Positions 1 through 63,099 of a stretch of 64,000 nt of DNA are shown piece after piece. How positions within the stretch are numbered: the first letter of the stretch is position 1; each line of letters opens with the position of its first letter. Made by a program: the position numbers and the translations under genes. The stretch comes from a virus: positions 2,369-66,368 of IMG/VR virus record IMGVR_UViG_3300043436_003448; one strand, written 5' to 3'. The notes under the pieces are model-generated. The model searched no databases, had not been told where the DNA came from, and saw nothing but the letters and a program-made list of their open reading frames with translations.

Positions 1-3000
1 TTGTGATATGGAAGTAACATGGCAATCTCTTCATCAACCGCCGCCCGCAGATCATCGTGATTCAGATCATTCTGCCCGGCAATCTCTGGGATCAGGTCCG
101 CGTTCGCCCGTTTCTTGATAGTCGCCTGTTTTGCGCCGGTTGACCGATTGTGCTTCTCGACTGCCTTTTCATAGTCTTTGGCTGAATCGAAATCCTCCTC
201 CTTTGGAGCTTCTCCAGCTGGCTCAACATCGTCGGCCATTGGTGTTTCGAGTTCCGCAGGATTAAAGGAAGTCGCTTTGGCCAGTTCTTTGGCCTGCTTC
301 TTTTCGGCTTTGGCGGATTCCTTCTTTTCAGCAACCTGCTGGGCCATTCCCTGAAGATGTTGTTCCCATGCTGCTTTCCGGGATTGACGAACTGGGGGAT
401 CAATCGACCGTTCCGGAGGCGAATAGTTGGTTTGCTCGCTGGCAGGTTTATTGAGGTTGTCAGGGTAATTGCGGGGTGAAGGAGTTTCTGAATCGCCGAC
501 GGCCGGAGAGGAAGAGTCTGCCGGCGCGGATTCACCCGATGAAGATCCTGATTCAGCACCATTCTTCGGGGCAAACTCGCCGCCCCGGCTTTCACTCGCC
601 CCCGCTGGTTGTCGCGGGTGATCGGAGTTGCTGAAGTTTCCGCCGCCAGAATCGCCGGGATCCCGCAACGGTCGAACCCCTGCCTTTCCGGCCGCCTGCG
701 TTTGTTGTTGCGTTACTGCTGGAGTTTGTGCCTGCTGCTGAGATCCCTGAGCCGGACCAACAACAACCCGTCCAGGAATACCCGCCGCATTTGCCCCAGA
801 CAAAGGCCGAACACCCGGAACCCCTGCCTTCCCGGCCGCCGCTGCTGAAACTGAATGAGCAGCAGTCTGAGCAGGCGAGGGAGGAGCATTTGCCGCCGCC
901 TGAGTATTGGCAGCATGTTGGTTAATGGCATTTTGAATGATCTGATTGACAACATTGTTTCCCATTTGCTGCTTTTGAAATGCAGACGCTGGAGGAGAAA
1001 CAGTAGCCACATTTGCGGCCGGAGAGGAAGGAGCCTGCGCGGGCTGAATCCCATTCGCTGCCATCGCTGATTGCATCCAAGCCGCCATCGCCGCCCCGAT
1101 CGCTGCATGAGCTACAGAACGAAGAGGACCGGAACGGAAGGCTTTGTTCGCGAGAGCCATTGCACCAGCGCCGACGGCTGCATGGATGAGCGGGTGAGCG
1201 TATTTATCAACCTGAACTTCCGACATTTCCGGCCGGACATACCGATCAATCACACCGTTCATCGTTTCGTAAATGTGCAAACGAGAATACTTTTCAGCCC
1301 CGGGAGCTTCTGGTTTCTTCAAAATCACCAGAGAGGTATTCACACCGGTTTGTCTTGGCGCGTCACTCCCGGCAAAAGAGGATTCTGGAAGTTCCTCAAA
1401 CTCTCCATGTTCATCAACAAATTCTGAAAATTCCGTTCTCTTCTTTCGGCTTGCTTCACGGTAAAGACGATCGCCGCCGGGAACAACCGCCACCAGTTTC
1501 CCGCCAGGCTTCAACAGACTGAAGGCGTGTTTTACGTGATCAATCGCCTGATCGTTTTCAAACGGTGGATTCATCACGATTCGATCGTATTCCCCTTTGT
1601 GCTCCAGAAAATCGCTGTGGTCAACATCATGGCCCTTCATCTTCAGGAGATCCTGAAGGCTTGAATGATGTTCAATTCCCTTCAACGTGACAGAATCACC
1701 GTGAGCAGCCTTCACCGCGTCCATGATTCGACCGGAGCCCGCTGAAGGTTCCAGAACGCTTTGGCCGTCGCGAATGTCGGCATGTTCCATCAGCCGATCG
1801 ATCACGCGAGGAGGAGTTGGATAGAAACCCTGTTCCCGATGTTCTCGGTGGATCTTCTTTTCAAGTTCCTTCACTGGATCTTTCTGGACGCTGCCATGTC
1901 GTTTCGCCTGATGTGGAGCCAGTTCTCGGAGAGCGGATCTCAATTCATGATCTTCCTGAATCCCCATCGCATAGAGTCGCTGGAAGTCGTCCTTGCTGCT
2001 AAACCCGCTCCAATCATGTTTCACGCCCTTTGACTTTGCACGATTCGCAAAGTCGAACCAATCTTTGGTCGATTGTTTGTTCAGGGTGATTCCGCGGTCT
2101 TCTGGATCTGAATGAGAATTCAATAACTTTTTCCACTTCGTTGCCTCTTGTTTCAGGCCTGGCGTATTGGCAGCAGCATCCAAAAACTTGCCGACATTGG
2201 ACGGGTAGATAATCTGACGAGGCATCTTTGCAAATGCCGCAGAATCAGCAGTCACGCCAGCCTGATACGTGTTTTCACGTTCCTGATAAGTAGCGTTCTT
2301 GCTCCAGTCGTCGCCGTATTTGTCTTTCAGTTTCTGTTCTTCATGCTTTCGCTGGGCCTGTTTCCAGATTCGCTGAAGGGATTCCAGTTGAGTCAGGGCA
2401 TTCATGCCGCGAAGGTGTTTTACTTCCCCGTTCTCCATCGCTTCAGAGATTGAGCGAAGACGAACAGCCTGATTCAAGTCGTGTTCCGCCGATGCCCGCG
2501 CACTGGCAGCCTGACCTGCTCGCTTATTTGTGTTTTCCTTCCGTTCGGCCGAGTAGGAAGCTGCCGCGCGTTCCTCGAGACGTTCGGCATGATCGGCCAA
2601 CTTTTCCCCAACCGTCTTTTCACGTTCTTCCTGCTTTGCTCCAAGGATGTCCGACCGATCAACCTTTTCGCCGGCCATAGCCTGCAGGAACCGGTTTCGC
2701 TTGTCTTCGTCCGGGAAGTGGAAGCCGCCAGGAGTTCCGCCGAACTGCTTGTAGTACCAGCCGCCAAGACGTTTAGCCGCCGTGTTCATTTTGTCGTATT
2801 CGTCGCGCTCGACTCGGTTTTTCGGCGATGCCGTGAAAATATCCTGGCCGCGTTTCGAGTGAAAATTCTTAGTGAGTTCGAACCCGCCATGATCGCCGGA
2901 AACATTAACCTGAACTGCAGTTGGCTTCTTTACTTCTTCCCGGCCGGAACGAGTCTTTTCAGACAGCAGGTTGTCATAGGCTTCTTGTTGCTCTGAGGTG

Positions 3001-5072
3001 AGTTTTTCGTAGCTGCCGACTTTCTTGATTGCCAGTTCGAAGTCTTTCAGGGTTTTCGGGTTTGCCGCTGCTTCCTCATTGGCTGCATTTGCTGCCTTCC
3101 AATCCGCAATGTTCTTTGCTTCCTTCTCGACGTGAGCCGCCAAGGATTCAGGAGTTTGTTTTGCAACGTGAGCAGCCAGCCGACGGACGGCAGCGCCATT
3201 CATTCCGCCAGCACCCCTGATATCGGAATCGGAGTAGATGTTTGAGATCCCATCGCCAACATTGAACGCTCGACTCATCATCGTTGCATAGACAGATTCC
3301 GCGTTCTCGCCTTTCTTGCTTTCACCGCGGATTGCTCGCCAATCACCGAGATTCGCTGCCATGTTCCGAAGTTGTTTTGCGTCGTATCGTTTCCCGAGAT
3401 CCGCAACAAAGGCTTCTTTGTTGTCGGTGTAGAATTTGTGGGCCTGCTGGAACTCATCAAAAGGAAGCTCGCCGGAATCGATCTTCCGGCTGAGTTGCAT
3501 CAGGGACCGGTAATCGCCGTGCGTTTCGGGATTGAACGAGCCGGAGAAATCTGAGTTTGATTTTTCTGGTTCTGACTGAGGCTCAGGTTCTGATTGCTGT
3601 TCAGGTTCAGGATCGGCCGGAGAGGAGGAAGCTTCCGGCGCTGGCTGTTCTTCTTCGTCTCGATGCCATCGGCCATCACGGAAAACCAGCCCTTCGGCGT
3701 TTGTGTCGCCGTCGTTTGGGCCGTCATCAGCTTTTGGCGTTTCCTGCCCATTCTTCCAGTCATTCACCGCAGAAATAACTTCCTTTGGAGTCATCGGTTT
3801 GCCGTCTTTCAACGGGACCAAATCTTGATACATCCATTTCGATCCGCCCTCAGACGTGATTCCGGTTTTGTTTACCCGCTTCACTGTTACAGAGTTTGAG
3901 GGGTTTTCGGCCAACGCCAATGAATCACCGGGCTTCAACGTTGCCTTCAGATATTCAGCATGAGAATCCCAGAAGTTTTGAACGGACTGTTTTTTCTCCT
4001 GACTCTTCGCCAGTTGTTCAGCGTCTTTCTGCTTTCCGAGTTCCGTTCTTCCGCCATGCTGATCAATCTCGCCACGGTCAAAGGCATCTGCCTTGCCCTG
4101 CAATAAGTTGGCTTGTTTGCGAACTTCAATTGACTTCAGGGCATTGTTTACCGATTGATCAATCCGCTTTGCTGCCTGCTTGCTGGTTCGCTGGGAAGAC
4201 GCATTTCCGGAGCGACCAACGCCGAGCGGAAAGGCAGACGCCATTGATTTGTCGAATGCAGAACCGCCAGGAGTCAGGGAGTCAGCTTTGTGGTTCAGTG
4301 AATCCATTTTTTCGCGGAATGGATTAACCCGATTCTCCATCGTCTTCGGGTTATTCAGATCCCCGGCATCCGAGTTGAACAACAGTTCCTGCCCCTTCAG
4401 ATCCCCAGTCCCCTTGCCGGTATCGAACAGCGCCCCCTGTTTCGTGGCAGCATCCGGCTTGCTGAAATCAACAGGTTTCGCGGGTGAAGGTTCTGGCGTG
4501 GAATCGAGCTCAAATGATTCACTCTCAGAATCACCAGTTGAATCATCAACGAAAATATCGGCCGGAGAGGAAGGATCTTCAGCCATCGCCTCTTCGAAGT
4601 CTTTCCCCATCGCCTCTTCAAAATCCATCGGCTCAACAGTCTTGAAATCCTCATCTTCATCGTCTTCAAACTTGAAGCCGGGATTCAGTTCCTCAAACAG
4701 TTTTCCCTGTCGATTATCAGGCCGACCACCCGAGATCCGCCCCATTTCCGCCAATGGCTTTGGTTTTGGCGCTGGCCCTTCCTCTCCGGCCGCCCCTTCC
4801 TTCTCAATCTGCTCCTTCGTCTTCCCCATCAGAGCCTTTGGCCCCTTCATGATCCGGCCATCTTCCCCGCTGATGAATACGCGAGCCCCGCGCATCGTTA
4901 CCCATTTCCCGGACTCATCATCGACCCGCTTCGAGAATAGCGGCTTCTGGCGTTCTTCTGGCTTCTCAAACAGTCCCAATTGACCGGCCGCCGGTTTTTG
5001 TCTCCGAGCGTATTCGTCGACGATGGCGTTTATCGTGTCACGGATTGAGAATTGAGCAGTTGAAGCCGTCAT
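1..5072 (-). CDS. Giant (>1690 aa, runs off window) polyvalent head-associated protein with N6-adenine DNA methyltransferase domain
   Basis: Not in the ORF track, consistent with no stop before base 1. ATG at 5072 with GGTGG RBS; hand translation MTASTAQFSIRDTINAIVDEYARRQKPAAGQLGLF. MTase motifs VLEPSAGSG (~1731-1758) and IVMNPPF (~1560-1580). HPRQPAG..GGEF motif (~580-620), typical of head-associated phage proteins. The same frame is still open at bases 3-65. Confidence 0.85.
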   Translation of the reverse strand, partial: MTASTAQFSIRDTINAIVDEYARRQKPAAGQLGLFEKPEERQKPLFSKRVDDESGKWVTMRGARVFISGEDGRIMKGPKALMGKTKEQIEKEGAAGEEGPAPKPKPLAEMGRISGGRPDNRQGKLFEELNPGFKFEDDEDEDFKTVEPMDFEEAMGKDFEEAMAEDPSSPADIFVDDSTGDSESESFELDSTPEPSPAKPVDFSKPDAATKQGALFDTGKGTGDLKGQELLFNSDAGDLNNPKTMENRVNPFREKMDSLNHKADSLTPGGSAFDKSMASAFPLGVGRSGNASSQRTSKQAAKRIDQSVNNALKSIEVRKQANLLQGKADAFDRGEIDQHGGRTELGKQKDAEQLAKSQEKKQSVQNFWDSHAEYLKATLKPGDSLALAENPSNSVTVKRVNKTGITSEGGSKWMYQDLVPLKDGKPMTPKEVISAVNDWKNGQETPKADDGPNDGDTNAEGLVFRDGRWHRDEEEQPAPEASSSPADPEPEQQSEPEPQSEPEKSNSDFSGSFNPETHGDYRSLMQLSRKIDSGELPFDEFQQAHKFYTDNKEAFVADLGKRYDAKQLRNMAANLGDWRAIRGESKKGENAESVYATMMSRAFNVGDGISNIYSDSDIRGAGGMNGAAVRRLAAHVAKQTPESLAAHVEKEAKNIADWKAANAANEEAAANPKTLKDFELAIKKVGSYEKLTSEQQEAYDNLLSEKTRSGREEVKKPTAVQVNVSGDHGGFELTKNFHSKRGQDIFTASPKNRVERDEYDKMNTAAKRLGGWYYKQFGGTPGGFHFPDEDKRNRFLQAMAGEKVDRSDILGAKQEEREKTVGEKLADHAERLEERAAASYSAERKENTNKRAGQAASARASAEHDLNQAVRLRSISEAMENGEVKHLRGMNALTQLESLQRIWKQAQRKHEEQKLKDKYGDDWSKNATYQERENTYQAGVTADSAAFAKMPRQIIYPSNVGKFLDAAANTPGLKQEATKWKKLLNSHSDPEDRGITLNKQSTKDWFDFANRAKSKGVKHDWSGFSSKDDFQRLYAMGIQEDHELRSALRELAPHQAKRHGSVQKDPVKELEKKIHREHREQGFYPTPPRVIDRLMEHADIRDGQSVLEPSAGSGRIMDAVKAAHGDSVTLKGIEHHSSLQDLLKMKGHDVDHSDFLEHKGEYDRIVMNPPFENDQAIDHVKHAFSLLKPGGKLVAVVPGGDRLYREASRKKRTEFSEFVDEHGEFEELPESSFAGSDAPRQTGVNTSLVILKKPEAPGAEKYSRLHIYETMNGVIDRYVRPEMSEVQVDKYAHPLIHAAVGAGAMALANKAFRSGPLRSVAHAAIGAAMAAWMQSAMAANGIQPAQAPSSPAANVATVSPPASAFQKQQMGNNVVNQIIQNAINQHAANTQAAANAPPSPAQTAAHSVSAAAAGKAGVPGVRPLSGANAAGIPGRVVVGPAQGSQQQAQTPAVTQQQTQAAGKAGVRPLRDPGDSGGGNFSNSDHPRQPAGASESRGGEFAPKNGAESGSSSGESAPADSSSPAVGDSETPSPRNYPDNLNKPASEQTNYSPPERSIDPPVRQSRKAAWEQHLQGMAQQVAEKKESAKAEKKQAKELAKATSFNPAELETPMADDVEPAGEAPKEEDFDSAKDYEKAVEKHNRSTGAKQATIKKRANADLIPEIAGQNDLNHDDLRAAVDEEIAMLLPYH

Positions 5073-5132: not shown

Positions 5133-7448
5133 TTAGCATTCAACTTTGGCCAATGACTTAGCCCGCATCGGCCCACCCTTGGCAATCCACTTTTTGAACA
5201 ATTCAGCCGTCATGCTCGCCGCCGGCCCGCACTTCCAGCCCTTCGGATAATTGGCCAGATACAACTTTTTGGCTTCTTTCCGATTCAGGCACCCAACAAC
5301 AACTTTGAATTCATCAAAATCCCCATCCTGATCAACCTGCTTGATCACCAGCACGAAATCTGAATCAGGGTGATTCCCAACGTAAACGTCCAGATTATCG
5401 CCGTCATTTGCTGCAGTCCGACGGAAATAGCCGTAGTGGCTGGACATTGTCCGAGACCATTCACGGCCGGAATCTGAGCAGCCCGAGCGAGTTGAGCCCT
5501 TCGGATTCTCGATGGCAATTTCCAGCCCCTTCCAAGGGAAGATTCCCTTTGAGTAGTTCCCGGCTTCTCGCTGGGCGGGAGTTGGGGAAGTGTGGGTTTC
5601 ACTGGCCGCGCTGTTCAGGAGTCGGGAAGATCGGCGTTGATATTGATCAGGTTTTGCGGCCGGAGAGGAAGGAGGCCCGGATTCTTCGCCCTGATCCCCA
5701 TTCACCTTACCCGCCACATGATCAATTACTCCCTGTTTCGCCGCCTTCACCTCTCCGGCCGCCTTCACATGCTCATGAGCAGCATCAATCTGGTTTCCGA
5801 ACCCAGTTCCTTTCGGGAATTGCATCCCGTTATTCATCCCGGCCGCAGCAGCCGCCGCATCCTGATCAGACTTCCTCAGCATTCTCTCATTCGGATTGTC
5901 TAGGCTCACCCCGATTGCCTCAGCAACATCCTTTTCAGGAATCCCGAGCCCCATTTCCCAAGCCGTCCGATACCCGTCCAACTTGTCTTTGACGTTGTCA
6001 CTTTCCAACTCATGCTTCAGATCAAACTGCCAACTTTCCGTTTCCGGCCAATTCGCCAGCTGGATCGGGCGCACCAATTCATGGGTCAACGTTTCCTGAA
6101 GATTGTTGCTGTCATACATCACAATCTGAGCCAACGAATCTTTCTGGAAGTCAGCCACTGAACTCCCCAAACCCGTCGCATCCGCTTCCGTGCTCAATGT
6201 CTGCCCGATGATGTATCGCTTGATCCGATGGCCGAAATACTTGTCCTGGATGTTTACGAGCATATCCATGCCCGCAAAACCCGGCTCCACGATCCGCAAA
6301 TCGTAAACAGCTGAATCCATGCCCAGAGGCTTCGGGAAGAAGATTTGATTCCTTCCGAACGCCATTCGGTTTTTCGCCGCTTCCATCACTGAGCGTTTCG
6401 CCTCAGCATCCCCGGACGGGTATTCATAAATTTCAATGCCGCCGGCCGAGCGTTCCATGTACTCCATCAGGAAGCCAAGAATCTCCTGCTTCAGGAACCA
6501 TTCGTTGTAAATTCGGTCCCTGATCCCGACGCCGTGAATTCGACCGGCCTTCCGAGGATTGTGGTATTCCGCATCTTCAATCATGTGCTTGTGGCAAATG
6601 ATCGTTTGGCGTTCGGCCGGAGAGAGGAAGATTGCCGCGCCGCTGTTCGTGTACTCAATATTTTGAATGCCGCGGATTCGGGCATCCTTCGGAATCACTG
6701 GAGAAACGCGGACGCCCATTTGATCGGGAAAGGCACCGGGAGGCATTTTTTCGCCGTCATCATACCGAAAAACAACCTTATCCCCGTGAATGTGCTTCCA
6801 GCCGTTCGAATCAGCATGTTTCGCGCGCGGGTAGCAGTACATTTTCCCGCCGATGTTCCCGTGCCCGTAGGTATGCTGAATTGCCGATCGGCCAATCCAA
6901 ATCCCATCCATTAGGCAACGACGGTATTCCGTCCAACGGCGAATTCGCTTGATGATCTTTGTCAGTTCGGCCGCCACAGACTTCTGAGCAGGGCTCTTTG
7001 TGTCTTCCGGGACGATTGACCAATCCAGAAGTGCCGTCATTCGCTGGCGAATCTCCAGGCATTCCATAATGCCCAGATCCTTGCGCATCAACAGGGCATC
7101 ATTCGGATTCGCTTCCAAAGACTCATCGGACGGGAGGTAAGTTTTGGCCTGACTCCCGATCTTGCTGGCAAACGTCATCGCATGAGGGGCAACGTCCTGG
7201 CCGAACAATGGAGGAGCCCCGGGAATATCGCTCGCCGGATCTTTGGTTCTTTCAATCCAGTTGTTGACGAAGCTTGCAACCTTTTCCCGCTCGCCAGCAT
7301 TTTTCCCGCCGCCGTAGCCATCAGGATTCAGGCGAAACGCGATTCCTCCGGGAGCATCGAAAACATGGTCGGCAGACTTATTGAGCAAAGCCGCCGCGCT
7401 GAAGGATTCCGCACGGTTGAATTTGTTGGAATTTCCTGAAGTATTCAT
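5133..7448 (-). CDS. Portal protein (Mu gp29/DUF935-like) fused to C-terminal inorganic pyrophosphatase-like (InPase) domain
   Basis: Portal-like core (IKRYIIGQTLSTEADATGLGS, ETLTHELVRPI..NWP). C-terminus PTPAQREAGNYSKG..IAIENPKGSTRSG..HYGYF..DGDNLDVYVG..FDEFKVV matches the polyvalent-protein InPase domain. Start may be ATG 7448 or TTG 7463. Confidence 0.8.
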   Translation of the reverse strand: MNTSGNSNKFNRAESFSAAALLNKSADHVFDAPGGIAFRLNPDGYGGGKNAGEREKVASFVNNWIERTKDPASDIPGAPPLFGQDVAPHAMTFASKIGSQAKTYLPSDESLEANPNDALLMRKDLGIMECLEIRQRMTALLDWSIVPEDTKSPAQKSVAAELTKIIKRIRRWTEYRRCLMDGIWIGRSAIQHTYGHGNIGGKMYCYPRAKHADSNGWKHIHGDKVVFRYDDGEKMPPGAFPDQMGVRVSPVIPKDARIRGIQNIEYTNSGAAIFLSPAERQTIICHKHMIEDAEYHNPRKAGRIHGVGIRDRIYNEWFLKQEILGFLMEYMERSAGGIEIYEYPSGDAEAKRSVMEAAKNRMAFGRNQIFFPKPLGMDSAVYDLRIVEPGFAGMDMLVNIQDKYFGHRIKRYIIGQTLSTEADATGLGSSVADFQKDSLAQIVMYDSNNLQETLTHELVRPIQLANWPETESWQFDLKHELESDNVKDKLDGYRTAWEMGLGIPEKDVAEAIGVSLDNPNERMLRKSDQDAAAAAAGMNNGMQFPKGTGFGNQIDAAHEHVKAAGEVKAAKQGVIDHVAGKVNGDQGEESGPPSSPAAKPDQYQRRSSRLLNSAASETHTSPTPAQREAGNYSKGIFPWKGLEIAIENPKGSTRSGCSDSGREWSRTMSSHYGYFRRTAANDGDNLDVYVGNHPDSDFVLVIKQVDQDGDFDEFKVVVGCLNRKEAKKLYLANYPKGWKCGPAASMTAELFKKWIAKGGPMRAKSLAKVEC

Positions 7449-7799
7449 AGATTCAGCTTTCAAATACCGTGCAGATTACATGCATGTGACATCAGGAGTC
7501 GAACAAAAGGCACGTTTCACAGACAGCCAAATTCTGCTTCAGTTCTTTCACGCCCACCTTTTCGGCCGAAGAGGAGTGGCGACGATCAATTTCGCGCTCA
7601 AAATCAATGGAATCTCTGACGGTGCTCATGTTCTGGAGTTGACAGCGAAAGATAGTGATTGTCGCACCGCAGGAACAGGCGTTTGTGGCAACTACGCCTC
7701 CAAGATAGCCGCATTTCTTGGCCATTTTTACATTTCATTTATGTTGCATGGTTGTTATTATGTTGTCATGTGGGCGGGTTGTGCATGTGTTAAACGCGG

Positions 7800-47876: not shown

Positions 47877-47883
47877 TCAAAAG

Positions 47884-50164: not shown

Positions 50165-50371
50165 TGCATGAATTCCAACAGCATGTAATAGGAATGTGAC
50201 ATCATGCAACATTTTGTTTTACAAATGTCATATTTGCAACGCAAAATCTGTGCCCGCAATGCCTTGCGACTATTGCGTTTTTCTTTTGTGATTTCTATGT
50301 TACATGCAGTTGACGTATATGCCGCGTCTTTGTAATCTTAGATAACGTTGCGTTGCAGGAGATGACGATAG

Positions 50372-50867: not shown

Positions 50868-51883
50868 TGAGTGTTTCTCCCGGAACAAGTGTTGAAGATG
50901 ATTTCCGTCTGGATGATGATTTTGAGTTCGATATTGACCTGTCAGCGATCCAAACGACAGTTCGCCCCGAAGCAGTGATGAGCGACCGAAAGGCCGATGA
51001 AACCCTGTCAAATGTGGGCGAAATGGTGTCCGCGACGACTACGAGAATTCCTCTCTCTTCGGCCGGAGGAAGTGTGTTGTATGTCGACATCGAAACGATT
51101 CCGGACTATGAGCGTCAGCACTTGTTTGGGCTGGATCCGCTCCCCGTTGTTCCGCCAGAACTGACGACCGAAAACCTGATGACTCCGGCTGAATTCCTGA
51201 GTCAGACAATCACTGAAATCAATCAGTGGTTTTCGAAGAACAACCCGTGCGAGGAATGGCTTCAGCAGTTGGAAACTGTTGAGGCTGCAACCGGGGGAAA
51301 GAAGGGAAGCCGGAAGGGCGTCTTTGATTCGATTAAGGAAGCCAGAGAATCGAAGAATGCTGTCGCAAAGGCGATCAAGGCCAATCGAAAGAAGATGAGC
51401 GTAACGCCCGAGATGGCTCAGATTGTTGCAATTGGTTTCGCAATCGATGACGAACCCGTGATTGCATCAGTTCTTGGACAAGACGGAGCAACCGAAAAGG
51501 GAATGCTCGAAGCCTTCTGGTTTATGGCCAAACGCTGCCAGCACATTTGCGGATTCAATGTTGCCGGGTTTGACCTGCCAACGATTTTCTTCCGCTCGAT
51601 CATGCTTGGCATCCCAGCGACCAGGTTGGTTGATTTGAGTCCATACAAGGATCATGTGATTGATCTGATGGTGAGCCGCTTCGGACGCAACGGCGAAAGG
51701 GGCATGGGGCTCAAAAACGTCGCAAAACTTTGTGACATCCAAGTTCCATGCGAGGGGGTTGACGGTTCTCAGGTTGAAGAACTGTTTCGGGCAAACCCGC
51801 CGCTTGTCGGCCAGTACGTTGCAAGTGACATCATTGTCACGAGGAAATTGCACCGGCTTTATTCAGGGTTTTTCTGCGTTTGA
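50868..51883 (+). CDS. 3'-5' exonuclease (PolB-exo/DnaQ-like)
   Basis: ExoI YVDIET, ExoII GFNVAGFDLP, ExoIII YVASD. Confidence 0.8.
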
Positions 51884-53275: not shown

Positions 53276-54115
53276 ATGAACACAAGAACCGGAACTGGTA
53301 TCACTGCAGACGACATGGAAGCAATTGATGATCTTGGTGGTGACTTTGCACCGGGACCACAGGGAATCGATGAGAACTATGAGTTCGATTCCTCGGATGT
53401 TGATGAAAAGGAGTTGGATACGTCCGGCATTCTCGATCAGGAAGGCTGGTATCACTTCGAGATCACGAAAGTTGACTTGGTTCTCGGACTGTTGGGCGAT
53501 GACGGCAAAGAGAATACGCCGCATATCAATGTGACGTGCAAGTCACTTAACAGTGTTCGCGGTCAGAGTCCGGTAGGCAGTGTTCTTTGGCACAAAATCT
53601 TCGTCGGAGCCAAAGGAGGCGGGCCACCAAAACAGGGCTCAATTGATTCCATGTTCCGGTTCGGTGTTGGTGTCGGCCTGATGAAGTGGGGCAAAAAGAC
53701 GAATCCAGACGGGACTGAAAAGTCTGTTTTGGTTCTCGCCAGCAATAACAGCACGAAGGTTCCGCCAGCAGTCTGGAAAACCATCGTCGGCGCTCAGTTC
53801 ATCGCTCAGGTTCAGAAGGAAAAGCAGCAGGAAGGCTCAAACTACAAGCCTCAGTTCAAAATTCCAATGGGCAAAGCCTATCGCCCTGATCATCCGGACG
53901 TGAGCCACGTTCAGAAGAACATCGAAGCTCTGGAATCCATCGGCATTAAGATTTCGACGACTGCCCCGACCCAGACGGAGCAGAAGGCCAAAGCAGCCTA
54001 CAAGACTGCAGCCGATACCGCTGGCCCTTCCTCTTCGGCCGGAGGAGGACAGCCGCCAGCTAAGGTTGCGACTGCTGCGCCTGCAGGTGATAGCTTCGAC
54101 ATGGATTCTCTTTGA
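53276..54115 (+). CDS. Putative ssDNA-binding protein (DUF669-like)
   Basis: EGWYHFEITKV OB-like start, low-complexity linker and acidic tail (DSFDMDSL). Confidence 0.55.
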   Translation: MNTRTGTGITADDMEAIDDLGGDFAPGPQGIDENYEFDSSDVDEKELDTSGILDQEGWYHFEITKVDLVLGLLGDDGKENTPHINVTCKSLNSVRGQSPVGSVLWHKIFVGAKGGGPPKQGSIDSMFRFGVGVGLMKWGKKTNPDGTEKSVLVLASNNSTKVPPAVWKTIVGAQFIAQVQKEKQQEGSNYKPQFKIPMGKAYRPDHPDVSHVQKNIEALESIGIKISTTAPTQTEQKAKAAYKTAADTAGPSSSAGGGQPPAKVATAAPAGDSFDMDSL

Positions 54116-55152: not shown

Positions 55153-55953
55153 ATGAATGACCTACTCTCAAACGGACTGAAATCCATCGTTGAACTGGCC
55201 AGAACTGAAACCCTGAAACCAGCGTATGAGTGCGCTGAGCAGATCGTTTTCCTTGATCGATTCACCGGAAATCAAGTTGAAGTCGACAAGCAGAAGCCAA
55301 CCACAAAACACACGCTCGACAACATTGATTCGCTGATTAACTTTATCGACCAGCGAGCGGACGAAGACGGACATGTGCCCTACATCTTCATCCGGCCAAC
55401 CAGTATCGTCTGCATTCTGGACTACTCCGAATTCCGCGTTCATCAGATCACAGTCCCTCTCTCTCAATCGCCAATTCTCTCCTACCTCTCAAAGGTCGCC
55501 GGGAATAACTTCGAGCCAAAAGAGGCAATCCGCTCGCTGAAGTACAACCTGAAATCGGCGATCCTGACCGATAACCCGATTCCATCCCTTCAGACGCTGA
55601 AATTCAGTTCCTCCTCTTCGGCCGAACATGAAACCAACTGGACAAGCGAAGGCGTCTCGAAAAGCCTGCAATCGTCTGTCACCGGCGCGGCAACAGTCCC
55701 GGAAGAATTCTCGGTTCAGTTCGAGATGTATCCAGCAATCACCGTTGAACTGGAAGCCGCTGGTTCTGTCACCGTGGAAATGGAACTCCATGTTGACCCG
55801 ACGAAGCAAACCCTCTCTTTCCGGCCGTTCCCCGGATCGATCGATCGGGCAATCTTGATGGCCCAGCAGGACGTTCAGAAAACAGTTGTAAAGAAGCTAA
55901 TTGGCGCTCAACGCGAGCCGCTGTCTCACCTTGTCTTTCTCGGTCAGCCCTGA
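55153..55953 (+). CDS. Conserved phage protein (DUF2303/YfdQ-like)
   Basis: HTLDNIDSLINFI..; typical pairing with the upstream small gene. Confidence 0.5.
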   Translation: MNDLLSNGLKSIVELARTETLKPAYECAEQIVFLDRFTGNQVEVDKQKPTTKHTLDNIDSLINFIDQRADEDGHVPYIFIRPTSIVCILDYSEFRVHQITVPLSQSPILSYLSKVAGNNFEPKEAIRSLKYNLKSAILTDNPIPSLQTLKFSSSSSAEHETNWTSEGVSKSLQSSVTGAATVPEEFSVQFEMYPAITVELEAAGSVTVEMELHVDPTKQTLSFRPFPGSIDRAILMAQQDVQKTVVKKLIGAQREPLSHLVFLGQP

Positions 55954-56375: not shown

Positions 56376-57655
56376 CTCAGGAAACCCTCACGGGCGTACT
56401 GAGTAAGATTATTTGGTCCTCACCTGAAGACGGCAACGATTACAAAATTGCCAAGCTTTCAACCGGCCAAACAGTTCTCGGATATGCCCCGGAAAATGAA
56501 TTTGTCATCGGGCAAACTTACACATTCCAAGGGAACTCGAAACTTGGAAAAGAATATCGTGGAGTGAAAGAACGTCAGTTCCATTTCACGAAATTCGAAC
56601 GGCAGGAACCCCATTCACGGATCGGGCTGGTTCACTACCTTGAAAAGTTCTGTCCAGGAATCGGCCCCACACTGGCCGGAAGGATCTTTGACAAGTACCA
56701 GCAGGAAGCCGTCTCGAAGCTTCGCACCTCTCCGGCCGAAGTTGCTGAGGCTATTCCCGGCATTTCCTTTGAAGTCGCTCAGGCGGCATCTGAGGAGCTG
56801 CAGAAGAACGTGAAATTCGAGGAAACCCGGATTGAGTTGAACCAGTTGTTCGCCGGCCGCGGATTCAGCAAACAACTGATCAACATGACTCTTAAGAAAT
56901 GGGGAGTTCAGGCAGCCGCCAGAATTCGCCGAGATCCCTTTTGTTTATTGGTTGAAGGTTTCCCGTCCGCTGGCTTCGCTCGCTGCGATCGGCTTTACAT
57001 CGAACAGGGCAAAAAGCTGTACCGGCTGAAAAGGTTGATGCTGTTCATCTGGCATCAGGTCAGGGAATCACTGGAAGGGCATACCTGGCATGATGCCAAA
57101 GAGATCATCAGCAAGTTGCGCCGAGACGCCTCAGTGAGCGATGAAGGCCGGGATTCAATGATATCGGCCGACAAGAGGATTCTTCGGGCGATTGAGTTGG
57201 GTGTCAGATCCGGTTGGCTAGCCATCAAGAAAACGAGTCAGGGAATTTTCGTTGCCGAAGGTAAGTCGGCAGAGAATGAAAACACGATTTCCCAAGTCGT
57301 TTTGAACATCGTAAACGGCCGGGAAGAGGTGAGCCCGATTGAAGGGTTTTACTTGCTGACGGAGCAAAGAAGAATTGAGGAAGAGGCTGAGGAGGAGCAG
57401 GACGAATGGGAGGAATCTCAGAGGCCTGCTGAGGTCGAATTGTCGGCCGAGGAGAAGGCGGCAATTGGGCGCAAAACTGGGATCTGCCAGTTTTGCAATC
57501 GAGTTCTGACTCATCAGGAAAGCAAGGCCCGGGGATACGGCCCGACATGTGCGCAGAAAAACGGATTGCCCTGGTCTGCATGGATCGGGAATGGAGCTGA
57601 CGGCTGGGCTGACGGGGTTTCTTTGAGTCTTCAAGCAGAAGTGGGAGCAGAGTAA
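56372..57655 (+). CDS. RecD2-like N-terminal half (OB plus HhH) with C-terminal Zn finger (DUF6011-like)
   Basis: PGIGPTLAGRI, IPGIS, IRRDPFCL..GFARCD, GHTW; C-terminal CQFCNRVLT..S..RGYGPTC. Confidence 0.75.
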   Translation: MTQETLTGVLSKIIWSSPEDGNDYKIAKLSTGQTVLGYAPENEFVIGQTYTFQGNSKLGKEYRGVKERQFHFTKFERQEPHSRIGLVHYLEKFCPGIGPTLAGRIFDKYQQEAVSKLRTSPAEVAEAIPGISFEVAQAASEELQKNVKFEETRIELNQLFAGRGFSKQLINMTLKKWGVQAAARIRRDPFCLLVEGFPSAGFARCDRLYIEQGKKLYRLKRLMLFIWHQVRESLEGHTWHDAKEIISKLRRDASVSDEGRDSMISADKRILRAIELGVRSGWLAIKKTSQGIFVAEGKSAENENTISQVVLNIVNGREEVSPIEGFYLLTEQRRIEEEAEEEQDEWEESQRPAEVELSAEEKAAIGRKTGICQFCNRVLTHQESKARGYGPTCAQKNGLPWSAWIGNGADGWADGVSLSLQAEVGAE

Positions 57656-58208: not shown

Positions 58209-59641
58209 TCCAAGCTACATCCCCTTCCCTGGCCGTAAACCGCCGTAAGACACTTTGGCCGGACCCGGCCACCATCACCAACATTTCAGAGCACCAGCGA
58301 GAACGCCTTGCCCTCGCCCTGTCAACGCGTTTCGGAATTCTCGGAGGAACGCCAGGCACCGGGAAGACTCACACCACGATTGCCCTGATCAAAGCCCTAG
58401 CCCGGCTGCATGGCTCCCACATGATCGCATTCGTTGCGCCAACCGGGAAAGCTGCCAATCGTGGGGCTGAATTACTTTCTTCCCATTCCCTGACAATCCC
58501 GGCAACCACGATTCACCGGATCTTGGAGGTTGACCGCAACGGCCGGGATGGAGAGGGCTGGAGCTTCAAGCGAAACAAATTCAACCGGCTGCAGCAGATG
58601 TTTTTCTTCGTCGATGAAATGTCGATGACAGACACGGACACATTCGCCAGCTTCTGTGAAGCCCTGCCAGATGAAGCCCACGTTCTTCTGGTTGGTGATA
58701 TCTACCAACTTCCACCCGTCGGACACGGTGCTCCTCTCCGTGATCTGATCAACTCCAATCAGGTTGGCTATGGAGAACTCACAGAGATCCGCCGCAACTC
58801 TGGTGACATCGTTATCGGATGCCAGAACCTGAAGAATGGCATCTACTTCCCGCCAAACACTTCCGGCCTGAATCTTGATCCCGAAGTAGGCATGAACTGG
58901 ATTCACAAACCTTGCTCCCGGCCGGAGCAGCAGGTTCAAACAATGCTGAAGCTTCTGGCAACGGTCCCCAAGACATTTAACCCGATATTTGACATCCAAG
59001 TCATCTGCACGACAAATGGGAAGCTTGACCAGGCATCGGAGAAGGAGGAGAACAACCCGATCTCACGGAACGCCCTGAACAAGATTCTTCAGCCGGCATT
59101 GAATCCATCAAATCCGATCACGGGGAAAAACAGATTCGCCGTCCGGGACAAAGTGATCTGCACAAAGAACGCCATCTTTGAACTGGTGGACATCATCCGG
59201 ACGGCCGGAGGAGTGGAGGTCGACGAAACCGGAACAAATGACATCGTAGCCAACGGTGAAATCGGGCAGGTCTGCGCGATTCAAGAAAAACGGGCGATCA
59301 TCAAATTGATGTTCCCGCAGCGTTATATCTCCTGCCCATTGTCGGCCGGAGGAGGAGGGGGCAACGGGACCGCCGGCAACTCTGGATGTTTCGATCTTGG
59401 GTATGCAATCACATGCCACAAGAGCCAAGGAAGCCAAATGCCAATCGTGATGGTCATGCTGGACGACTCGAACGGAGCCAACTGGGTGACCAGCCGCGAA
59501 TGGCATTACACCGCCATCAGCCGAGCCGAAAAAATCTGCATGACAATCGGAAAATGGGACACGTTGATGCGGCAGAGTAAGCGGGTGAGTCTGTCAGGCC
59601 GGAAAACGTTTCTCAGTGAAAAATTGCAGGGGGTAATGTGA
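58205..59641 (+). CDS. RecD2-like SF1B helicase domain
   Basis: GTPGTGKT, APTGKAA, TIHR, VDEMSM, VGDIYQLPPVG, GYAITCHKSQGS and YTAISRA. Confidence 0.9.
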   Translation: MIQATSPSLAVNRRKTLWPDPATITNISEHQRERLALALSTRFGILGGTPGTGKTHTTIALIKALARLHGSHMIAFVAPTGKAANRGAELLSSHSLTIPATTIHRILEVDRNGRDGEGWSFKRNKFNRLQQMFFFVDEMSMTDTDTFASFCEALPDEAHVLLVGDIYQLPPVGHGAPLRDLINSNQVGYGELTEIRRNSGDIVIGCQNLKNGIYFPPNTSGLNLDPEVGMNWIHKPCSRPEQQVQTMLKLLATVPKTFNPIFDIQVICTTNGKLDQASEKEENNPISRNALNKILQPALNPSNPITGKNRFAVRDKVICTKNAIFELVDIIRTAGGVEVDETGTNDIVANGEIGQVCAIQEKRAIIKLMFPQRYISCPLSAGGGGGNGTAGNSGCFDLGYAITCHKSQGSQMPIVMVMLDDSNGANWVTSREWHYTAISRAEKICMTIGKWDTLMRQSKRVSLSGRKTFLSEKLQGVM

Positions 59642-59762
59642 TGTTTTCAATTCTCAATCCAATGGAACTGTCAGACCTGCAATTCAACATTTTCCTGTCG
59701 CTCTTCGGCGGGATTTTCTTCCTCCTCCCGGCCGTCTTTACCCTGTACCTCCTTCACCTCAC

Positions 59763-60525: not shown

Positions 60526-63099
60526 ATGCTCAGGAATGGACTTCTGATGGCCGATTATTCGCTCTTTCCGATCCTTTCGAAGTTTGAACGCCTCACATGG
60601 CGATCGGACAACCCCAATCTGGGGGAATGCCGTTGCCCTGGGCACGATGACTCAACAAATTCGCTGCACGTCACTATCAAACACTGTGACGATGGCGTGA
60701 CAAAGTTGATGTTGAAGTGTCACGCGGGATGCCAGAACGGGGATATTCTTCGGGCAATGGGAGAGGTTTTTTCCTCGCTGTTTCCTGATCGGACAAGGCA
60801 ATCGAAATCCGGAAACCCCTCCTCTTCGGCCGGAAAGGGAGGAGCCGCGAGCGCGGGCAAGAACGAGCCCAAACTGGTCAAAGTCTACGACTACCACGAC
60901 TCAGACGGCCAGTTGCTCCATCAGACTCTACGCTGGGAACCAAAGCTTTTCACCCAAAGGCGCCGCGCTGAGCCGAACACCGTTTACCAGGTGAAGGGAG
61001 TTGACAGGAAATCCTTCAAAGATCCTCACGGAAACTGGTGGATCAATTCTCTCAGCGGAATTGAACCCGTCATTTACCGACTTCCCGAGATTCTTCGCGC
61101 TGACAATCGGAAATTCATCTTTCTTTGCGAAGGGGAAAAGGACGCCGATAATCTCAAGGCGAAATTCAATGTCTATTCAACCACCGTTCCAATGGGCGCA
61201 GGGAAGTGGCGACCGTCTTACACTCAGGTTTTCCGAGGCCGACGCGTAATCATCATTCCGGATACCGACAAGCCCCGGAAGGGACAAACGGATCCCGCCG
61301 CAAATGCTGGATACGATGGAGCTCGCCGAGTAGCCGCCGAACTTGTCAAAGTCGCTTTGGAAGTCCGGATTTGCTACCTCCCAAACGTCAACGACCAACT
61401 AAGCCCAAAATGGGACTTGTCAGATTGGCTTGCCGCGGGAGGCACAAAGGCCCAATTCCTTGACGCTTGCAACGATGCCCCAATTCTTCACCCCGGACAT
61501 CCGGGATTGATCCCGGCAGGAATGACGGCCGCGGAGTCCGAATCAGCAATGCAGATGCCCCCGCAGTCTGATACCGCTGAATCCTCCTCCCAACTCCCGG
61601 CCGTCATTCCTCCTTTTGCTTTAGACGTATTCAATCAGCCGATCCGCGGGCAAATTTACAACGTCGTTGAAACTGCCGACGGCTTTGAACCAATTTCCAT
61701 GAGAGGCATCATGCACCAGTTCCGAAAGGTCACAGACAATTGGCCGAAACGAGTTGGAAAGGCTTTGTTCTACGTGGACAAGGATAGCCCGAATCCGATT
61801 GATCCTCATTATTACCCGATTCAATGGCTGACTTCCTCTTCCTCGCTTTTCGGCTGGGCCGGGAGTTATTCAGGGAGCCCAATCGCATTCGCCAAAACCG
61901 CCGGCTGCCACAACAAAGAGGAAGTTTTTGCGGAGTTCCAGAGGACCGGCGAGCCGTTTGAATCAGTCGAGCAGTACCCGCATGAACCGCGAGTTCCAGA
62001 AGTTTACTACGCGTGCAAAGAGCAGGAGGAATGGAAGTCGACTCGCCCCGGTTGTCTTTACGAACTCGTTGCCCGCTTCTCTCCGGCCGAACCTGTTGAT
62101 TACGATTTGATCATTGCATTTCTGGCAACCTTAGTTTGGGGAGGAGCAGGAGGCCAACGCCCGCTTTTCGTCATCACTTCCGATTCCGGCCGGGGAGCAG
62201 GGAAGACGACATTTGCGAGCTTGTTGACTTCGATCGTCGGAGGTTCTTTAGCCCTGTCATCTCAGGCAGACGATCAGATTATCCGTCAACGCCTTCTCTC
62301 CCCGGAAGGACTGGAGAAGAGAGCCATTCTGCTGGACAATGTGAAAAGCCTGAAATTCTCCTGGGCGGAATTTGAGGCCTTGATTACCAGCGAGAAAATT
62401 TCCGGCAAACAAATGTATGTCGGCGAAGCTTCCCGAGTGAACCGAATCACCTATGTGATCACGATCAATGGCCCCAGTCTTTCAACTGACCTTGCGCAAC
62501 GAGCAATCACAATCAAACTGGGGAAACCAGTTCACACAGGCGATTGGTTGGCCGATACGGCGAAATTCATCAGTGAAAACAAAACAAACATCATCGCCGA
62601 GCTTCTGGAACTCCTGCGCCAGCCCATCAAACCGCTGGCCGCCAATACTCGCTGGGGCAACTGGGAAACCAATGTTCTTTGCCGCCTGAGCAATGCCGAA
62701 CGATGCCAAGAAGTTATTCGAGCCCGCCAGGCTGCACTTGATGCCGAGCAGGACGAATCGAATCTGATTCTGGAGCATTTCGAAAAGCAGTTGTTGAAAA
62801 ACAATATGCGGACGGATTATGACAAGATCCTGATTTCATCAGCAACGGCCGCCGAATGGTTGTGTGAGGCGCTGGGCGAGAAGCATTCAAAGGCATCAGC
62901 TGGGAGAATGCTGGCTCAGAAGATTAACGAAGGACGATTGCCACGAATTTCAAAGACCGAGAACCCTGAACGAATCGACCAGAGCAACCGGAGAGAAAGA
63001 GGTTTCTGGTGGACGCCAGAAAATTGGCAGGAAGGCGGCTCAGTTGTTCGGCCGGGAGGATTGGCGACGTTTGATGTTAATGATTTTGCAGTGTTTTGA
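60526..63099 (+). CDS. Primase-helicase (Zn-binding, TOPRIM and P-loop domains)
   Basis: CPGHDD..SL..CHAGC; CEGEKDAD, IIPDTD, DLSDW; GRGAGKTT, LLDN. Confidence 0.85.
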   Translation: MLRNGLLMADYSLFPILSKFERLTWRSDNPNLGECRCPGHDDSTNSLHVTIKHCDDGVTKLMLKCHAGCQNGDILRAMGEVFSSLFPDRTRQSKSGNPSSSAGKGGAASAGKNEPKLVKVYDYHDSDGQLLHQTLRWEPKLFTQRRRAEPNTVYQVKGVDRKSFKDPHGNWWINSLSGIEPVIYRLPEILRADNRKFIFLCEGEKDADNLKAKFNVYSTTVPMGAGKWRPSYTQVFRGRRVIIIPDTDKPRKGQTDPAANAGYDGARRVAAELVKVALEVRICYLPNVNDQLSPKWDLSDWLAAGGTKAQFLDACNDAPILHPGHPGLIPAGMTAAESESAMQMPPQSDTAESSSQLPAVIPPFALDVFNQPIRGQIYNVVETADGFEPISMRGIMHQFRKVTDNWPKRVGKALFYVDKDSPNPIDPHYYPIQWLTSSSSLFGWAGSYSGSPIAFAKTAGCHNKEEVFAEFQRTGEPFESVEQYPHEPRVPEVYYACKEQEEWKSTRPGCLYELVARFSPAEPVDYDLIIAFLATLVWGGAGGQRPLFVITSDSGRGAGKTTFASLLTSIVGGSLALSSQADDQIIRQRLLSPEGLEKRAILLDNVKSLKFSWAEFEALITSEKISGKQMYVGEASRVNRITYVITINGPSLSTDLAQRAITIKLGKPVHTGDWLADTAKFISENKTNIIAELLELLRQPIKPLAANTRWGNWETNVLCRLSNAERCQEVIRARQAALDAEQDESNLILEHFEKQLLKNNMRTDYDKILISSATAAEWLCEALGEKHSKASAGRMLAQKINEGRLPRISKTENPERIDQSNRRERGFWWTPENWQEGGSVVRPGGLATFDVNDFAVF

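Follow-up and report, generated by a model that had tools for sequence, protein, structure and literature searches.

The 64,000-nucleotide window analysed here (bases 2369 to 66,368 of the linear, 66,368-bp virus record IMGVR_UViG_3300043436_003448, the completeness of which is put at ~82% by the collection's own estimate) comes from a phage whose genes are studded with an asymmetric element of ~18 bp. This motif consists of an invariant CGGCCG core and, on one side of it, an 11-12-nucleotide (nt) G-rich homopurine tract with the consensus GAGAGGARGG, in which any purine is accepted. Positions are those of the window throughout, and the gene coordinates and calls derive from a model based on open reading frames (ORFs) that was made in this analysis. 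The genes run leftward from 0 to 36.5 kb and mostly rightward at 36.6-45.7 kb and 48-63 kb. Among the leftward genes are those for the large terminase TerL (28,686-30,533, minus strand) and for a Mu-type portal protein (5133-7463, minus strand) fused to a pyrophosphatase-like domain of a type that is present in DarB-like proteins. Directly downstream of the portal gene, at 3-5072 on the minus strand, lies the gene of an 1833-amino-acid (aa) DarB-like polyvalent protein with an N6-adenine DNA methyltransferase domain; the preliminary description had mistaken this long, PSSPA-rich gene for that of a tape-measure protein. A tyrosine integrase gene (48,066-49,295, plus strand) indicates that the phage is temperate. 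The genes recognised besides these encode an exonuclease, parts of a RecD-like helicase, an ERCC4 nuclease and a primase/helicase, with a weak, sub-threshold match to RecT, and most of the remaining proteins of the window have no family match in Pfam or PHROGs. An Rfam-type scan found two tRNAs and no other known RNA family in the window. The start codons are not preceded by Shine-Dalgarno sequences.

The motif is far more frequent than composition or coding content would produce. The record has 114 CGGCCG, of which 112 fall in the window; 100 dinucleotide shuffles of the latter gave 20.8 ± 4.4 (largest 33). In 69 of these 114 cases at least 10 of the 12 nucleotides adjoining the core on at least one side are purines, a property shared by 2.9% of all 12-mers; five of these composites are two-sided, which gives 74 arms in total. 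The ~40 or more copies first counted by eye, between 500 and 62,090, were thus an underestimate in number and in extent, as further copies lie at 62,187 and 63,274 and at two loci of the record upstream of the window. Two null models of 200 shuffles each were used, one that shuffles synonymous codons within genes and so keeps protein and codon usage, and one that permutes codon order. The former yields 39.7 ± 5.0 CGGCCG (maximum 57), 7.7 ± 2.2 arms (maximum 16) and 0.1 copies of the strict form CGGCCGRAGAGGARG, the latter 29.4, 4.3 and 0, where 114, 74 and 18 were observed (17 strict copies fall in the window, with 0.00 expected). Synonymous shuffling hence eliminates ~90% of the copies, and codon usage does not account for the frequency of the motif. 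In a k-mer comparison with the synonymous shuffles, CGGCCG ranked first of all hexamers (z 13.7), its extensions ranked first among 8- and 10-mers, and GGCCGGAGAG was found 23 times with 1.2 expected.

Neither half of the motif is enriched by itself. The 45 CGGCCG outside composites are close to the ~40 of the synonymous null, so that the selected unit is the ~18-bp composite, which makes up the whole excess. The tract is not independently enriched without the core either: GAGAGG occurs 54 times with 25 expected, and an estimated ~27 of the 54 are inside composites. A weight matrix built from the antisense-class copies (defined below) holds ~10 bits in the core and ~10 bits in the tract; it gives 68 hits at or above 14 bits against one in a reversed-sequence control, and of 73 hits at or above 12 bits only two have an imperfect core. 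The resulting ~20 bits, spread over ~17 positions, should suffice for a site that is unique to the phage inside a cell. The 69 loci are dispersed over 66.4 kb except for a block at 36.2-44.6 kb, and their spacing outside it is exponential (mean 817 bp, Kolmogorov-Smirnov p 0.70, coefficient of variation 0.89); the periodicity that the preliminary description suggested looking for was rejected in favour of random spacing.

About 95% of the copies are intragenic, with no position preference within genes. We call a copy antisense if its purine tract lies on the template strand, so that the mRNA-like strand reads CCYTCCTCTCCGGCCG, and sense in the opposite case. Of 71 genic arms, 53 are in the frame NCG-GCC-GNN (p 1.6e-12), where they encode Pro/Ser linkers (PSSPA-like) if antisense and A-G-E/K-rich peptides if sense. 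This predominant frame is the one that costs the protein least. The other frames encode unrelated peptides, and the encoded residues vary between F, S, L and P with the pyrimidine character maintained. The peptides quoted at the outset could all be located (AAGEEG at 4787, TLSGR at 14148, PPRP at 13482, LLPAE at 26732, and several PSSPA). The accompanying statement that copies lie in coding sequence, on both strands and in different frames, stands as far as coding location, strands and the use of more than one frame are concerned, but the frames are used unevenly and the best copies are strongly polar.

Indeed, the arms divide into 41 antisense, 30 sense and 3 intergenic ones, where the synonymous shuffles give 1.7 antisense and 3.0 sense arms in genes. 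The suggested check for strand bias yielded 17 antisense copies against 1 sense copy for the strict form (binomial p 1.4e-4), and 20 against 4 for copies with 12 purines out of 12. The polarity flips three times with local gene direction, at 45.3, 46.7 and 48.1 kb: a plus-strand gene has its strict copy on the minus strand (45,322-45,339), the minus-strand gene 46,499-47,920 has two on the plus strand (46,747 and 47,674), and from 48,113 the polarity returns to minus. All three intergenic copies of the window have the antisense-class polarity, as do three of five in relatives, the other two being where gene calls are unsure. Purine runs of at least 11 nt that lack the core are biased in the opposite direction (28 sense, 14 antisense, as compared with 10 sense and 30 antisense with the core; Fisher p 1.8e-4), and therefore general coding or transcription constraints do not account for the polarity.

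The motif is also conserved. Six loci on five contigs could be aligned to the window at 72-85% DNA identity, and comparisons among them are not independent. Counted by site and relative, core and tract are kept together in 23 of 24 antisense cases, in the single intergenic case (1/1) and in 7 of 13 sense cases, while bare CGGCCG is kept in 18 of 52 and random hexamers in 18-44%. The kept tracts contain 39 transitions and 7 transversions, i.e. 39 of 46 changes are purine-to-purine, against 4668 and 5040 (48% transitions) in all aligned columns (p 3e-7). This dominance of transitions, next to a near-invariant core, implies that the tract is read as 'purine' and the core base by base. Lost copies align at the same length and differ by point substitutions, e.g. 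CGGTCG or CGACCA in place of CGGCCG; the footprint of an inserted mobile element was rejected on these grounds, and copies appear to arise and decay by point substitution. In a wider set of 16 partly overlapping loci of relatives we counted 89 antisense, 57 sense and 5 intergenic arms, and for a looser strict form 40, 9 and 1, numbers that duplicates inflate and that are indicative only. The early claim that selection acts on the nucleic acid rather than on the protein is borne out by the effect of synonymous shuffling, by the retention of copies in orthologues despite diverging flanks and by the purine-to-purine changes in the tract. On this comparative evidence, the motif is under purifying selection at the nucleic-acid level.

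Is the motif a common element of such phages? Loci of relatives were gathered from viral and metagenome contigs by TerL-based searches, a comparison that the preliminary description had called for. Arm densities of 0.40-1.34 per kb were seen in all 12 loci (9 contigs) with a TerL identity of 59% or more, and the contig of the 59% locus has a further one with 0.74. Among the 59 loci at or below 54% identity, 47 are without arms and the other 12, all with a GC content of at least 0.58, have one or two. A pool of 17 sister loci (205 kb) with a similar GC content, closely related among themselves, contains no composite, and only 3 CGGCCG where 53 are expected, a deficit that is part of a broad palindrome avoidance with a list unlike that of this phage. 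In a scan of viral contigs, every motif-dense stretch among the at least 113 listed belongs to a relative of the phage. Other composites of a palindrome and a purine tract reached only chance-level counts, in high-GC loci, among the loci of at least 5 kb in a set of 310 fetched. As judged from these searches, the motif is restricted to one uncultured clade. TerL is at most 28% identical to that of GenBank phages, which gave no DNA match. Near-identical DNA occurs in one lake-water sequencing run, from which the present DNA may stem, and parts of the DNA of this phage or of its relatives occur in wastewater and freshwater runs of further studies. A 73%-identical TerL is encoded on a 280-kb contig, which was not among the matches listed by a metagenome scan, and a protein atlas searched with a phage protein returned only the taxon 'viruses'. 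The host phylum is possibly Planctomycetota, since two TerL homologues, 46-49% identical, are named as metagenome-assembled genomes of Pirellulaceae and Planctomycetaceae.

The block without motifs sets in behind the copy at 35,965-35,982 (plus strand). The composite is absent from 35,983-45,270 and CGGCCG between 35,970 and 44,734 (35,971-44,733), with the accessory genes at ~36.2-44.6 kb, so that the absence noted early on for ~36.0-45.2 kb holds up; the best weight-matrix score there is 6.3 bits. At the motif density of the rest of the genome, such an empty block has a probability of 1e-5 to 3e-8. Only 1.8 CGGCCG are expected from the dinucleotides of the block itself, which therefore lacks the enrichment rather than avoiding the hexamer. 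Its GC skew is +0.16 to +0.21, compared with about -0.17 to +0.02 to its left. In one relative, ~3.2 kb of other DNA separates the homologues of 35.06 kb and 44.66 kb, and in another the 5.8 kb past the homologue of 36.5 kb are unrelated and likewise motif-free. Relatives' contigs from three runs match the window only from 44,566-44,616, one of them with 202 unlike letters to the left, and the block itself is covered in the run contigs by short patches only. A contig that joins 35,470 to 46,747 (side 22) ends on a motif copy and was set aside as probably a repeat artefact. The first gene of the block (36,641-37,858, plus strand; 405 aa, no family match) encodes a protein that is 73% identical over its full length to one from a locus of the sister clade. 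The structural proteins of that locus are only 38-54% identical, which points to recent horizontal exchange. With the skew, the replacement in relatives, the 73%-identical first gene and the point from which the contigs fit, the proposal that the block at 36-44.6 kb is foreign or recent is well supported at the sequence level. In practice, motif density would show how long a gene has resided in these phages, and would flag recently exchanged cassettes. Few genes of the block are recognisable, among them those for an RNA ligase and a PAPS-reductase-like protein. The block has a repeat of its own, (A)GTAAACGCGG, in six exact copies (five plus, one minus) at 40,083-44,299 and one mismatched copy; all lie at or near gene boundaries between 39.8 and 44.3 kb (39,842-44,299), and the repeat could act as cassette promoter, as terminator or in recombination.

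To the left of the block, genic antisense copies lie on the plus strand and sense copies on the minus strand. Strict antisense copies are found at 500-517, 1016-1033, 3614-3631, 4559-4576, 5657-5674 (in the Mu-like portal gene), 20128-20145, 20560-20577, 22814-22831 (kept in 3/3 aligned relatives) and 32028-32045. The other antisense copies are those at 6614-6631, 10897-10914 (weak tract), 13482-13499 (frame 0, PPRP), 14148-14165 (frame 2, TLSGR), 16532-16549, 18791-18808, 19836-19853, 25352-25369 (kept in 3/4 aligned relatives despite indels in the flanks), 26732-26749 (5/5), 28121-28138 (4/4), 30497-30514 and 34940-34957. The only strict copy in sense orientation is at 4775-4792 (AAGEEG). 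Further sense copies lie at 677-694 and 821-838 (both with degenerate tracts), at 2534-2551, 2929-2946 and 5744-5761 (degenerate), at 13993-14010, at 19339-19356 and 19759-19776 (weak), and at 27079-27096, 28223-28240 (kept in 3/5 relatives), 28711-28728 and 32358-32375. The copy at 7551-7580 is two-armed, its tracts flanking the CGGCCG at 7563. Intergenic copies on the plus strand are those at 14482-14499, of antisense-class polarity with respect to the flanking minus-strand genes, and at 35058-35075, of the same class. The antisense-class copy at 35410-35427 (plus strand) may be intergenic as well, the ORF there being doubtful; it lies 13 nt downstream of a tRNA gene (35,441-35,521, minus strand). 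This tRNA scores 54 bits with Rfam and overlaps a called ORF, and ARAGORN gives it the four-base anticodon 'aaac' and assigns no amino acid; it may have an 8-nt anticodon loop and decode a quadruplet, or its loop may have been mis-parsed.

Two further observations concern the terminase gene, in which the copy at 30497-30514 lies 31 nt from the start. Directly upstream of it, in an unusual position, a small protein (30,536-30,871, minus strand) has a divergent 4Fe-4S mono-cluster domain (Fer4_19, E 1.5e-22). Many close TerL homologues (P0006, P0009, P0010, P0012, P0024 and others) are 750-990 aa long, some with the intein-type or homing-endonuclease domains PF14890 and PF14528, and the TerL match in the relative L003 (10,001-12,247) spans 2,247 nt, which suggests inteins in the terminase of relatives, not in that of this phage.

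To the right of the block, the first copies are a sense one at 45271-45288 (plus), a two-armed one at 45322-45351, whose minus arm is strict and antisense to a plus-strand gene, and an antisense one at 45465-45482 (minus). The minus-strand gene 46,499-47,920 contains two strict antisense copies on the plus strand (46747-46764 and 47674-47691). In the integrase gene, antisense copies on the minus strand (48113-48130 and 48486-48503) alternate with weak sense copies on the plus strand (48302-48319 and 48959-48976). They are followed by a sense copy at 50104-50121 (minus), an antisense copy at 51048-51065 (minus) and a sense copy at 52000-52017 (plus) that is lost in an aligned relative. Antisense copies on the minus strand then lie at 52684-52701 and 55607-55624 (both strict), 55810-55827, 56721-56738 (weak), 61586-61603 (weak) and 62072-62089, and two-armed copies with a strict antisense minus arm at 54024-54053 and 60815-60844. 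Sense copies on the plus strand are found at 57316-57333, 57444-57461, 58540-58557, 59202-59219, 59343-59360 and 62187-62204. The copy at 59717-59734 (minus) is intergenic, with antisense-class polarity relative to the flanking plus-strand genes, and the last one, at 63274-63291 (plus), is weak and antisense to the minus-strand gene 63104-63922.

Several observations on the relatives stand beside this map. In the closest relative, L006, ORFs of 68 and 94 aa at 6,086-7,119 replace the integrase and the small divergent genes of window positions 47,921-50,371, so that the lysogeny module itself seems exchangeable. The relative L001 has a 9-mer family, ACCTGAGTG and shifts of it, in 18-24 copies, probably a tandem or dispersed repeat array. 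Five sister-clade phages (L253, L261, L256, L250 and L246; TerL 48-54%) have an enriched octamer, GCGTGACA. In L253 it is present 12 times within 17.5 kb, where length alone gives an estimated ~0.5, for the most part on the coding strand and in several frames. Six-base palindromes are missing in both groups. This phage's record has no copy of GACGTC, GGGCCC, CACGTG, ATTAAT, AGTACT or GTGCAC, where synonymous shuffles give 12.6, 9.5, 8.1, 7.2, 7.1 and 5.8, and this looks like restriction avoidance. The 205 kb of the sister loci have no CCCGGG, ACGCGT or CTCGAG, with 52.6, 41.4 and 37.4 expected, and because the two avoidance lists differ, the sister phages probably have different hosts.

What might read the motif? 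A binding site for some protein is the leading idea, and the polarity with respect to transcription points to transcription control rather than to packaging or partition. As a possible reading, which we advance tentatively, the motif would be the site of a clade-specific factor that acts polar to transcription in the manner of a stoperator. The stoperators of Cluster A phages are described as 20-30 asymmetric repressor sites that are oriented with transcription, stop elongation and silence the prophage (PMC6550527), and one report has a monomeric two-domain repressor recognising an asymmetric site (PMC9283540). By analogy, a factor that would be encoded by the phage may recognise the motif on phage DNA; bound at many sites in lytic genes, it would halt elongating RNA polymerase and so silence the prophage. 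Nearly every long-resident gene of this temperate clade has the motif within its coding sequence, and the block at 36.2-44.6 kb with its boundary repeat would be site-free as too recent or as intended for expression. The invariant core with an any-purine tract, the ~20 bits, the polarity, the conservation, the restriction to one clade, the origin by point mutation and the absence from the block together favour the stoperator-like reading, the stoperators being the only described system in which most of these properties are combined. In particular, the specificity for the clade and the rarity elsewhere are what would be expected of a phage-encoded reader.

A number of points weigh against this proposal. 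Most non-structural proteins, among which a reader was sought, are unnamed by Pfam and PHROGs; a helix-turn-helix signal appeared once only, as a 13-bit match below threshold at 50,631-50,732, and the proteins encoded at 45,670-47,920 and 49,799-50,212 gave nothing in Pfam, PHROGs, the sequences of solved structures or the atlas. A 109-aa gene (26,598-26,927) is found in 10 loci of the motif clade and in none of the 17 sister loci, a difference that may reflect the limit of sensitivity for so short a protein. One relative keeps 10 of 10 aligned composites without a tblastn hit to the integrase or to the divergent gene 49,799-50,212, whereas an immunity repressor from that region would be expected to co-vary with its site; since the motif is kept without these switch-region genes, its reader would be encoded elsewhere or would not be a repressor. 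Known stoperators are mostly intergenic, unlike the motif. The 30 sense arms, 10-fold above the null, are not needed by a strictly polar element, and no copy of at least 12 bits lies in the divergent intergenic regions 36,155-36,640 and 50,213-50,371, the candidate switch regions. The conservation of 23 out of 24 is high for roadblocks that are mutually redundant. SSPA occurs four times and AGEE once in 225,236 aa of motif-free relatives, so the polarity may partly reflect protein tolerance, which may add a little to it. Finally, the results fit action at the DNA level or the RNA level, and a polymerase brake or a helper alike.

A somewhat unlikely alternative is an orientation-neutral mark of 'self' on double-stranded DNA, i.e. 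a site for a protein that organises, protects or helps to package the genome, with the polarity as a by-product of protein or transcription tolerance. The information content of the motif would suit such a mark, as each sampled bacterial genome holds 0-5 exact copies, and so would the enrichment of both orientations, the five two-sided copies, the random spacing of about one per 0.8 kb throughout the core genes and the high conservation of individual sites, which fits a function needed locally everywhere. The mark would leave unexplained why strict copies are polar by 17 to 1, and why sense copies are poorer matches and kept less often. Long purine runs that lack the core are tolerated in the sense orientation and are even the more frequent there. 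It is also at odds with the intergenic copies of the window, which are free of coding constraint and all of the antisense class.

Two ideas that place the signal in strand or transcript seem to us unlikely, and to a similar degree. According to one, the motif is a strand-polarity code for the sense direction of long-resident genes that works through nucleic-acid structure or the nascent transcript and not as a classical operator. A homopurine template with a GC clamp might let sense transcription pass, while purine-rich antisense RNA would lock into an RNA-DNA hybrid; or a phage factor might read the pyrimidine tract and GGCCG on the nascent RNA or the non-template strand and thereby tell phage from host transcripts. 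If true, this would be a genome-wide cis-code within reading frames, for which no precedent is known among phages. According to the other, the element CCYUCCUCUCCGGCCG would act in mRNAs, where a protein or a purine-rich RNA would bind it and mark transcripts for stability, processing or translation. The polarity, intergenic copies included, and the any-pyrimidine degeneracy, as is usual for pyrimidine-tract binding or for G-U-tolerant pairing, agree with an RNA element, and with starts that lack Shine-Dalgarno sequences, purine and pyrimidine tracts need not disturb initiation. An RNA element does not explain the 10-fold enrichment of sense arms, and it would have no known RNA family behind it beyond the two tRNAs of the window, no preferred position within genes and no conserved hairpin partner: a hairpin with a downstream GGCC was rejected, since only 7 of the 41 antisense arms have a GGCC after the tract, the background being 8-9%.

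Rather improbable, in our view, is a positive elongation signal. Like ops or put, the motif would act through the non-template strand or the nascent RNA and load a processivity or antitermination factor for the 36-kb leftward operon, from which self-promoted cassettes would be exempt. The polarity agrees with this, as does the way the motif spans long runs of co-directional genes and is missing from the cassette block with its boundary repeat. Known ops and put sites, however, act once per operon and not 40 times, a six-frame search turned up neither a NusG/RfaH-like nor a sigma-like protein, and the sense copies would again be left over.

A signal determined by the host and gained by long residence as a prophage, whether an uptake sequence, a Chi- or KOPS-like site or a HIP1-like palindrome, is very doubtful. 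Uptake sequences do share a frequency of ~1 per kb, a frame-biased in-frame placement, a random spacing and an absence from recently acquired DNA, and the differing oriented octamer of the sister clade is what host-specific signals would show. Yet none of 401 genomes drawn evenly from the Planctomycetota is enriched, 119 of them holding 1-5 copies of the exact 15-mer, like the reversed control; TerL itself was not found in these genomes (E 1e-30), and TerL patterns found no prophage in a collection of genome contigs. In a scan of the genomes of 185,579 species, each of the at least 120 stretches listed has a single copy, and none shows a phage-like density at ~50% GC; the motif-dense viral contigs, among the matches listed, are all relatives. 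A Chi-like site is not supported on three further counts: Chi has 5-8 nt and this unit holds information over ~17 positions, core and tract are each unenriched alone, and the flips at 45.3-48.1 kb follow single genes and not replication arms or DNA ends. The polarity of the strict copies does not go with the lack of orientation preference of an uptake sequence. A HIP1-like palindrome is not supported, because the palindrome alone is not hyper-abundant and has no methyltransferase or deamination signature. Indeed, of the deamination products TGGCCG/CGGCCA is over-represented, not depleted (1.49-fold), and CGGTCG/CGACCG stands at 1.04-fold, so that a drive by deamination repair was rejected. Within the sampled genomes and the matches listed, the tests argue against a host-wide signal and lend no support to the early suggestion of an uptake- or Chi-type one.

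That the motif is a target of DNA modification is very unlikely. The DarB-like protein, carried in the virion, would methylate an adenine of the tract at N6, for protection or as a mark of self. It matches phrog_15406 'DNA methyltransferase' (E 3.6e-162) and M.TaqI (E 7.6e-5), has an NPPF motif and is 83% identical in its methyltransferase domain in the closest motif-bearing relative. It is the only DNA-modifying enzyme recognised in the record, and its link to the motif would be hypothetical. A methyltransferase site would be base-specific, and the tract is degenerate; GAGAGG without the core is not independently enriched; and phages normally lose restriction targets and do not gain methylation targets. 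Methylation of the CGGCCG palindrome, as the preliminary description had envisaged, fares no better: the hexamer has no adenine, and no C5-methyltransferase (PF00145) was found in six frames of the record, which is ~82% complete. With bare sites neither avoided nor enriched, in contrast to wholly missing palindromes such as GACGTC, an EagI-type restriction or modification target is not supported either.

Highly improbable is a lagging-strand priming site for the phage primase-helicase, with CGGCCG as a cryptic recognition element and a pyrimidine template that yields a stable purine-rich primer. The phage does encode a primase/helicase, Okazaki fragments have a spacing like the ~0.8-1.2 kb of the motif, and primase sites have a similar architecture, with recognition bases 3' of a pyrimidine template; but known primase sites are ~3 nt long, and no single replication pattern yields three polarity flips within 3 kb that go with gene direction. 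The notion that the motif has no function as nucleic acid, being either an accident of composition or a linker peptide that recurs (PSSPA, AGEE), is almost certainly wrong: 53 of 71 genic arms do share one frame and linker-like peptides, but shuffling synonymous codons with the proteins kept lowers the antisense arms from 41 to 1.7 and so refutes it as far as sequence analysis reaches, other frames give unrelated peptides, three copies are intergenic, and residues change among F, S, L and P without loss of the pyrimidine character.

Genome-wide scattered repeats that control phages are known from only a few actinobacteriophage clusters, whereas the lineage with the present motif is uncultured, lives in freshwater and wastewater and possibly infects Planctomycetota. 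The architecture is a different one, a restriction-site palindrome with a degenerate homopurine tract almost wholly within reading frames, and the motif shapes proteins, in which Pro/Ser linkers recur. With such density, polarity and conservation, clean experiments should be feasible. We anticipate that it offers a route to a new sequence-specific reader and possibly to a new genome-wide control of transcription.

Among known systems, Chi and KOPS are 5-8-mers that take their orientation from replication or from DNA ends and abound in the host; the motif is likewise oriented, over-represented and strand-specific, but has 18 bp, flips with individual genes and is unenriched in the genomes searched. 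The uptake sequences of Pasteurellaceae and Neisseriaceae (USS/DUS) are an orientation-neutral property of the host chromosome. They resemble the motif in their ~1 copy per kb, frame-biased in-frame placement and scarcity in recently acquired DNA, and differ from it in that its best copies are polar and no cell genome with the motif was seen among the matches listed or the 401 Planctomycetota genomes. HIP1 and similar cyanobacterial palindromes are hyper-abundant palindromic cores that also occur inside genes, as the core does here, whereas in our case the bare palindrome is unenriched, a one-sided purine tract is needed, and the enrichment was seen in a phage clade and in none of the cell genomes sampled. 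The 18-bp Sal box of mouse ribosomal DNA, bound by TTF-I, is a restriction-site palindrome in an asymmetric element that stops polymerase from one direction. The likeness, a palindrome inside an asymmetric 18-bp element, is one of analogy only, as the Sal box is eukaryotic, lies in few tandem copies downstream of one gene and has no relation of descent to the motif.

Closer parallels are found in phages. The 17-bp repeat TGTTCGGNNNCCGAACA of Cluster O mycobacteriophages, with 34 copies in Corndog, is described as unexplained, with protein binding thought likely (PMC4351075). Like the motif, it is scattered over the genome and lies partly within coding regions; according to the same source, it has dyad symmetry, its orientation is not meaningful and about one-third of it is intragenic (PMC4351075), while the motif described here lacks such symmetry, is polar and lies almost entirely inside genes. 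The Cluster A stoperators (L5, Bxb1), as that literature describes them, come nearest to the motif in being asymmetric sites in tens of copies over both arms of a temperate genome, with a polarity that follows transcription and a lineage-specific consensus (PMC6550527). Here, the site is asymmetric, with two-sided tracts at 5 of 69 loci; the copies are dispersed and in the tens, 69 loci in 66.4 kb; and one orientation prevails in strict (17 to 1) and in 12/12-purine copies (20 to 4), yet by only 41 to 30 among all genic arms. An operator copy at an early lytic promoter, as sought in the two divergent regions, was not seen. The present motif further departs from the stoperators in its 44-69 copies instead of 20-30, in lying to ~95% in coding sequence and in a preferred frame, in pairing a palindromic core with a degenerate homopurine tract where theirs is a base-specific 13-14-mer, and in its substantial minority of weaker reverse copies. 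No repressor was recognised in the searches, and the switch region is not conserved with the motif. It belongs, moreover, to a different, uncultured lineage, with a TerL less than 28% identical to that of the GenBank phages searched.

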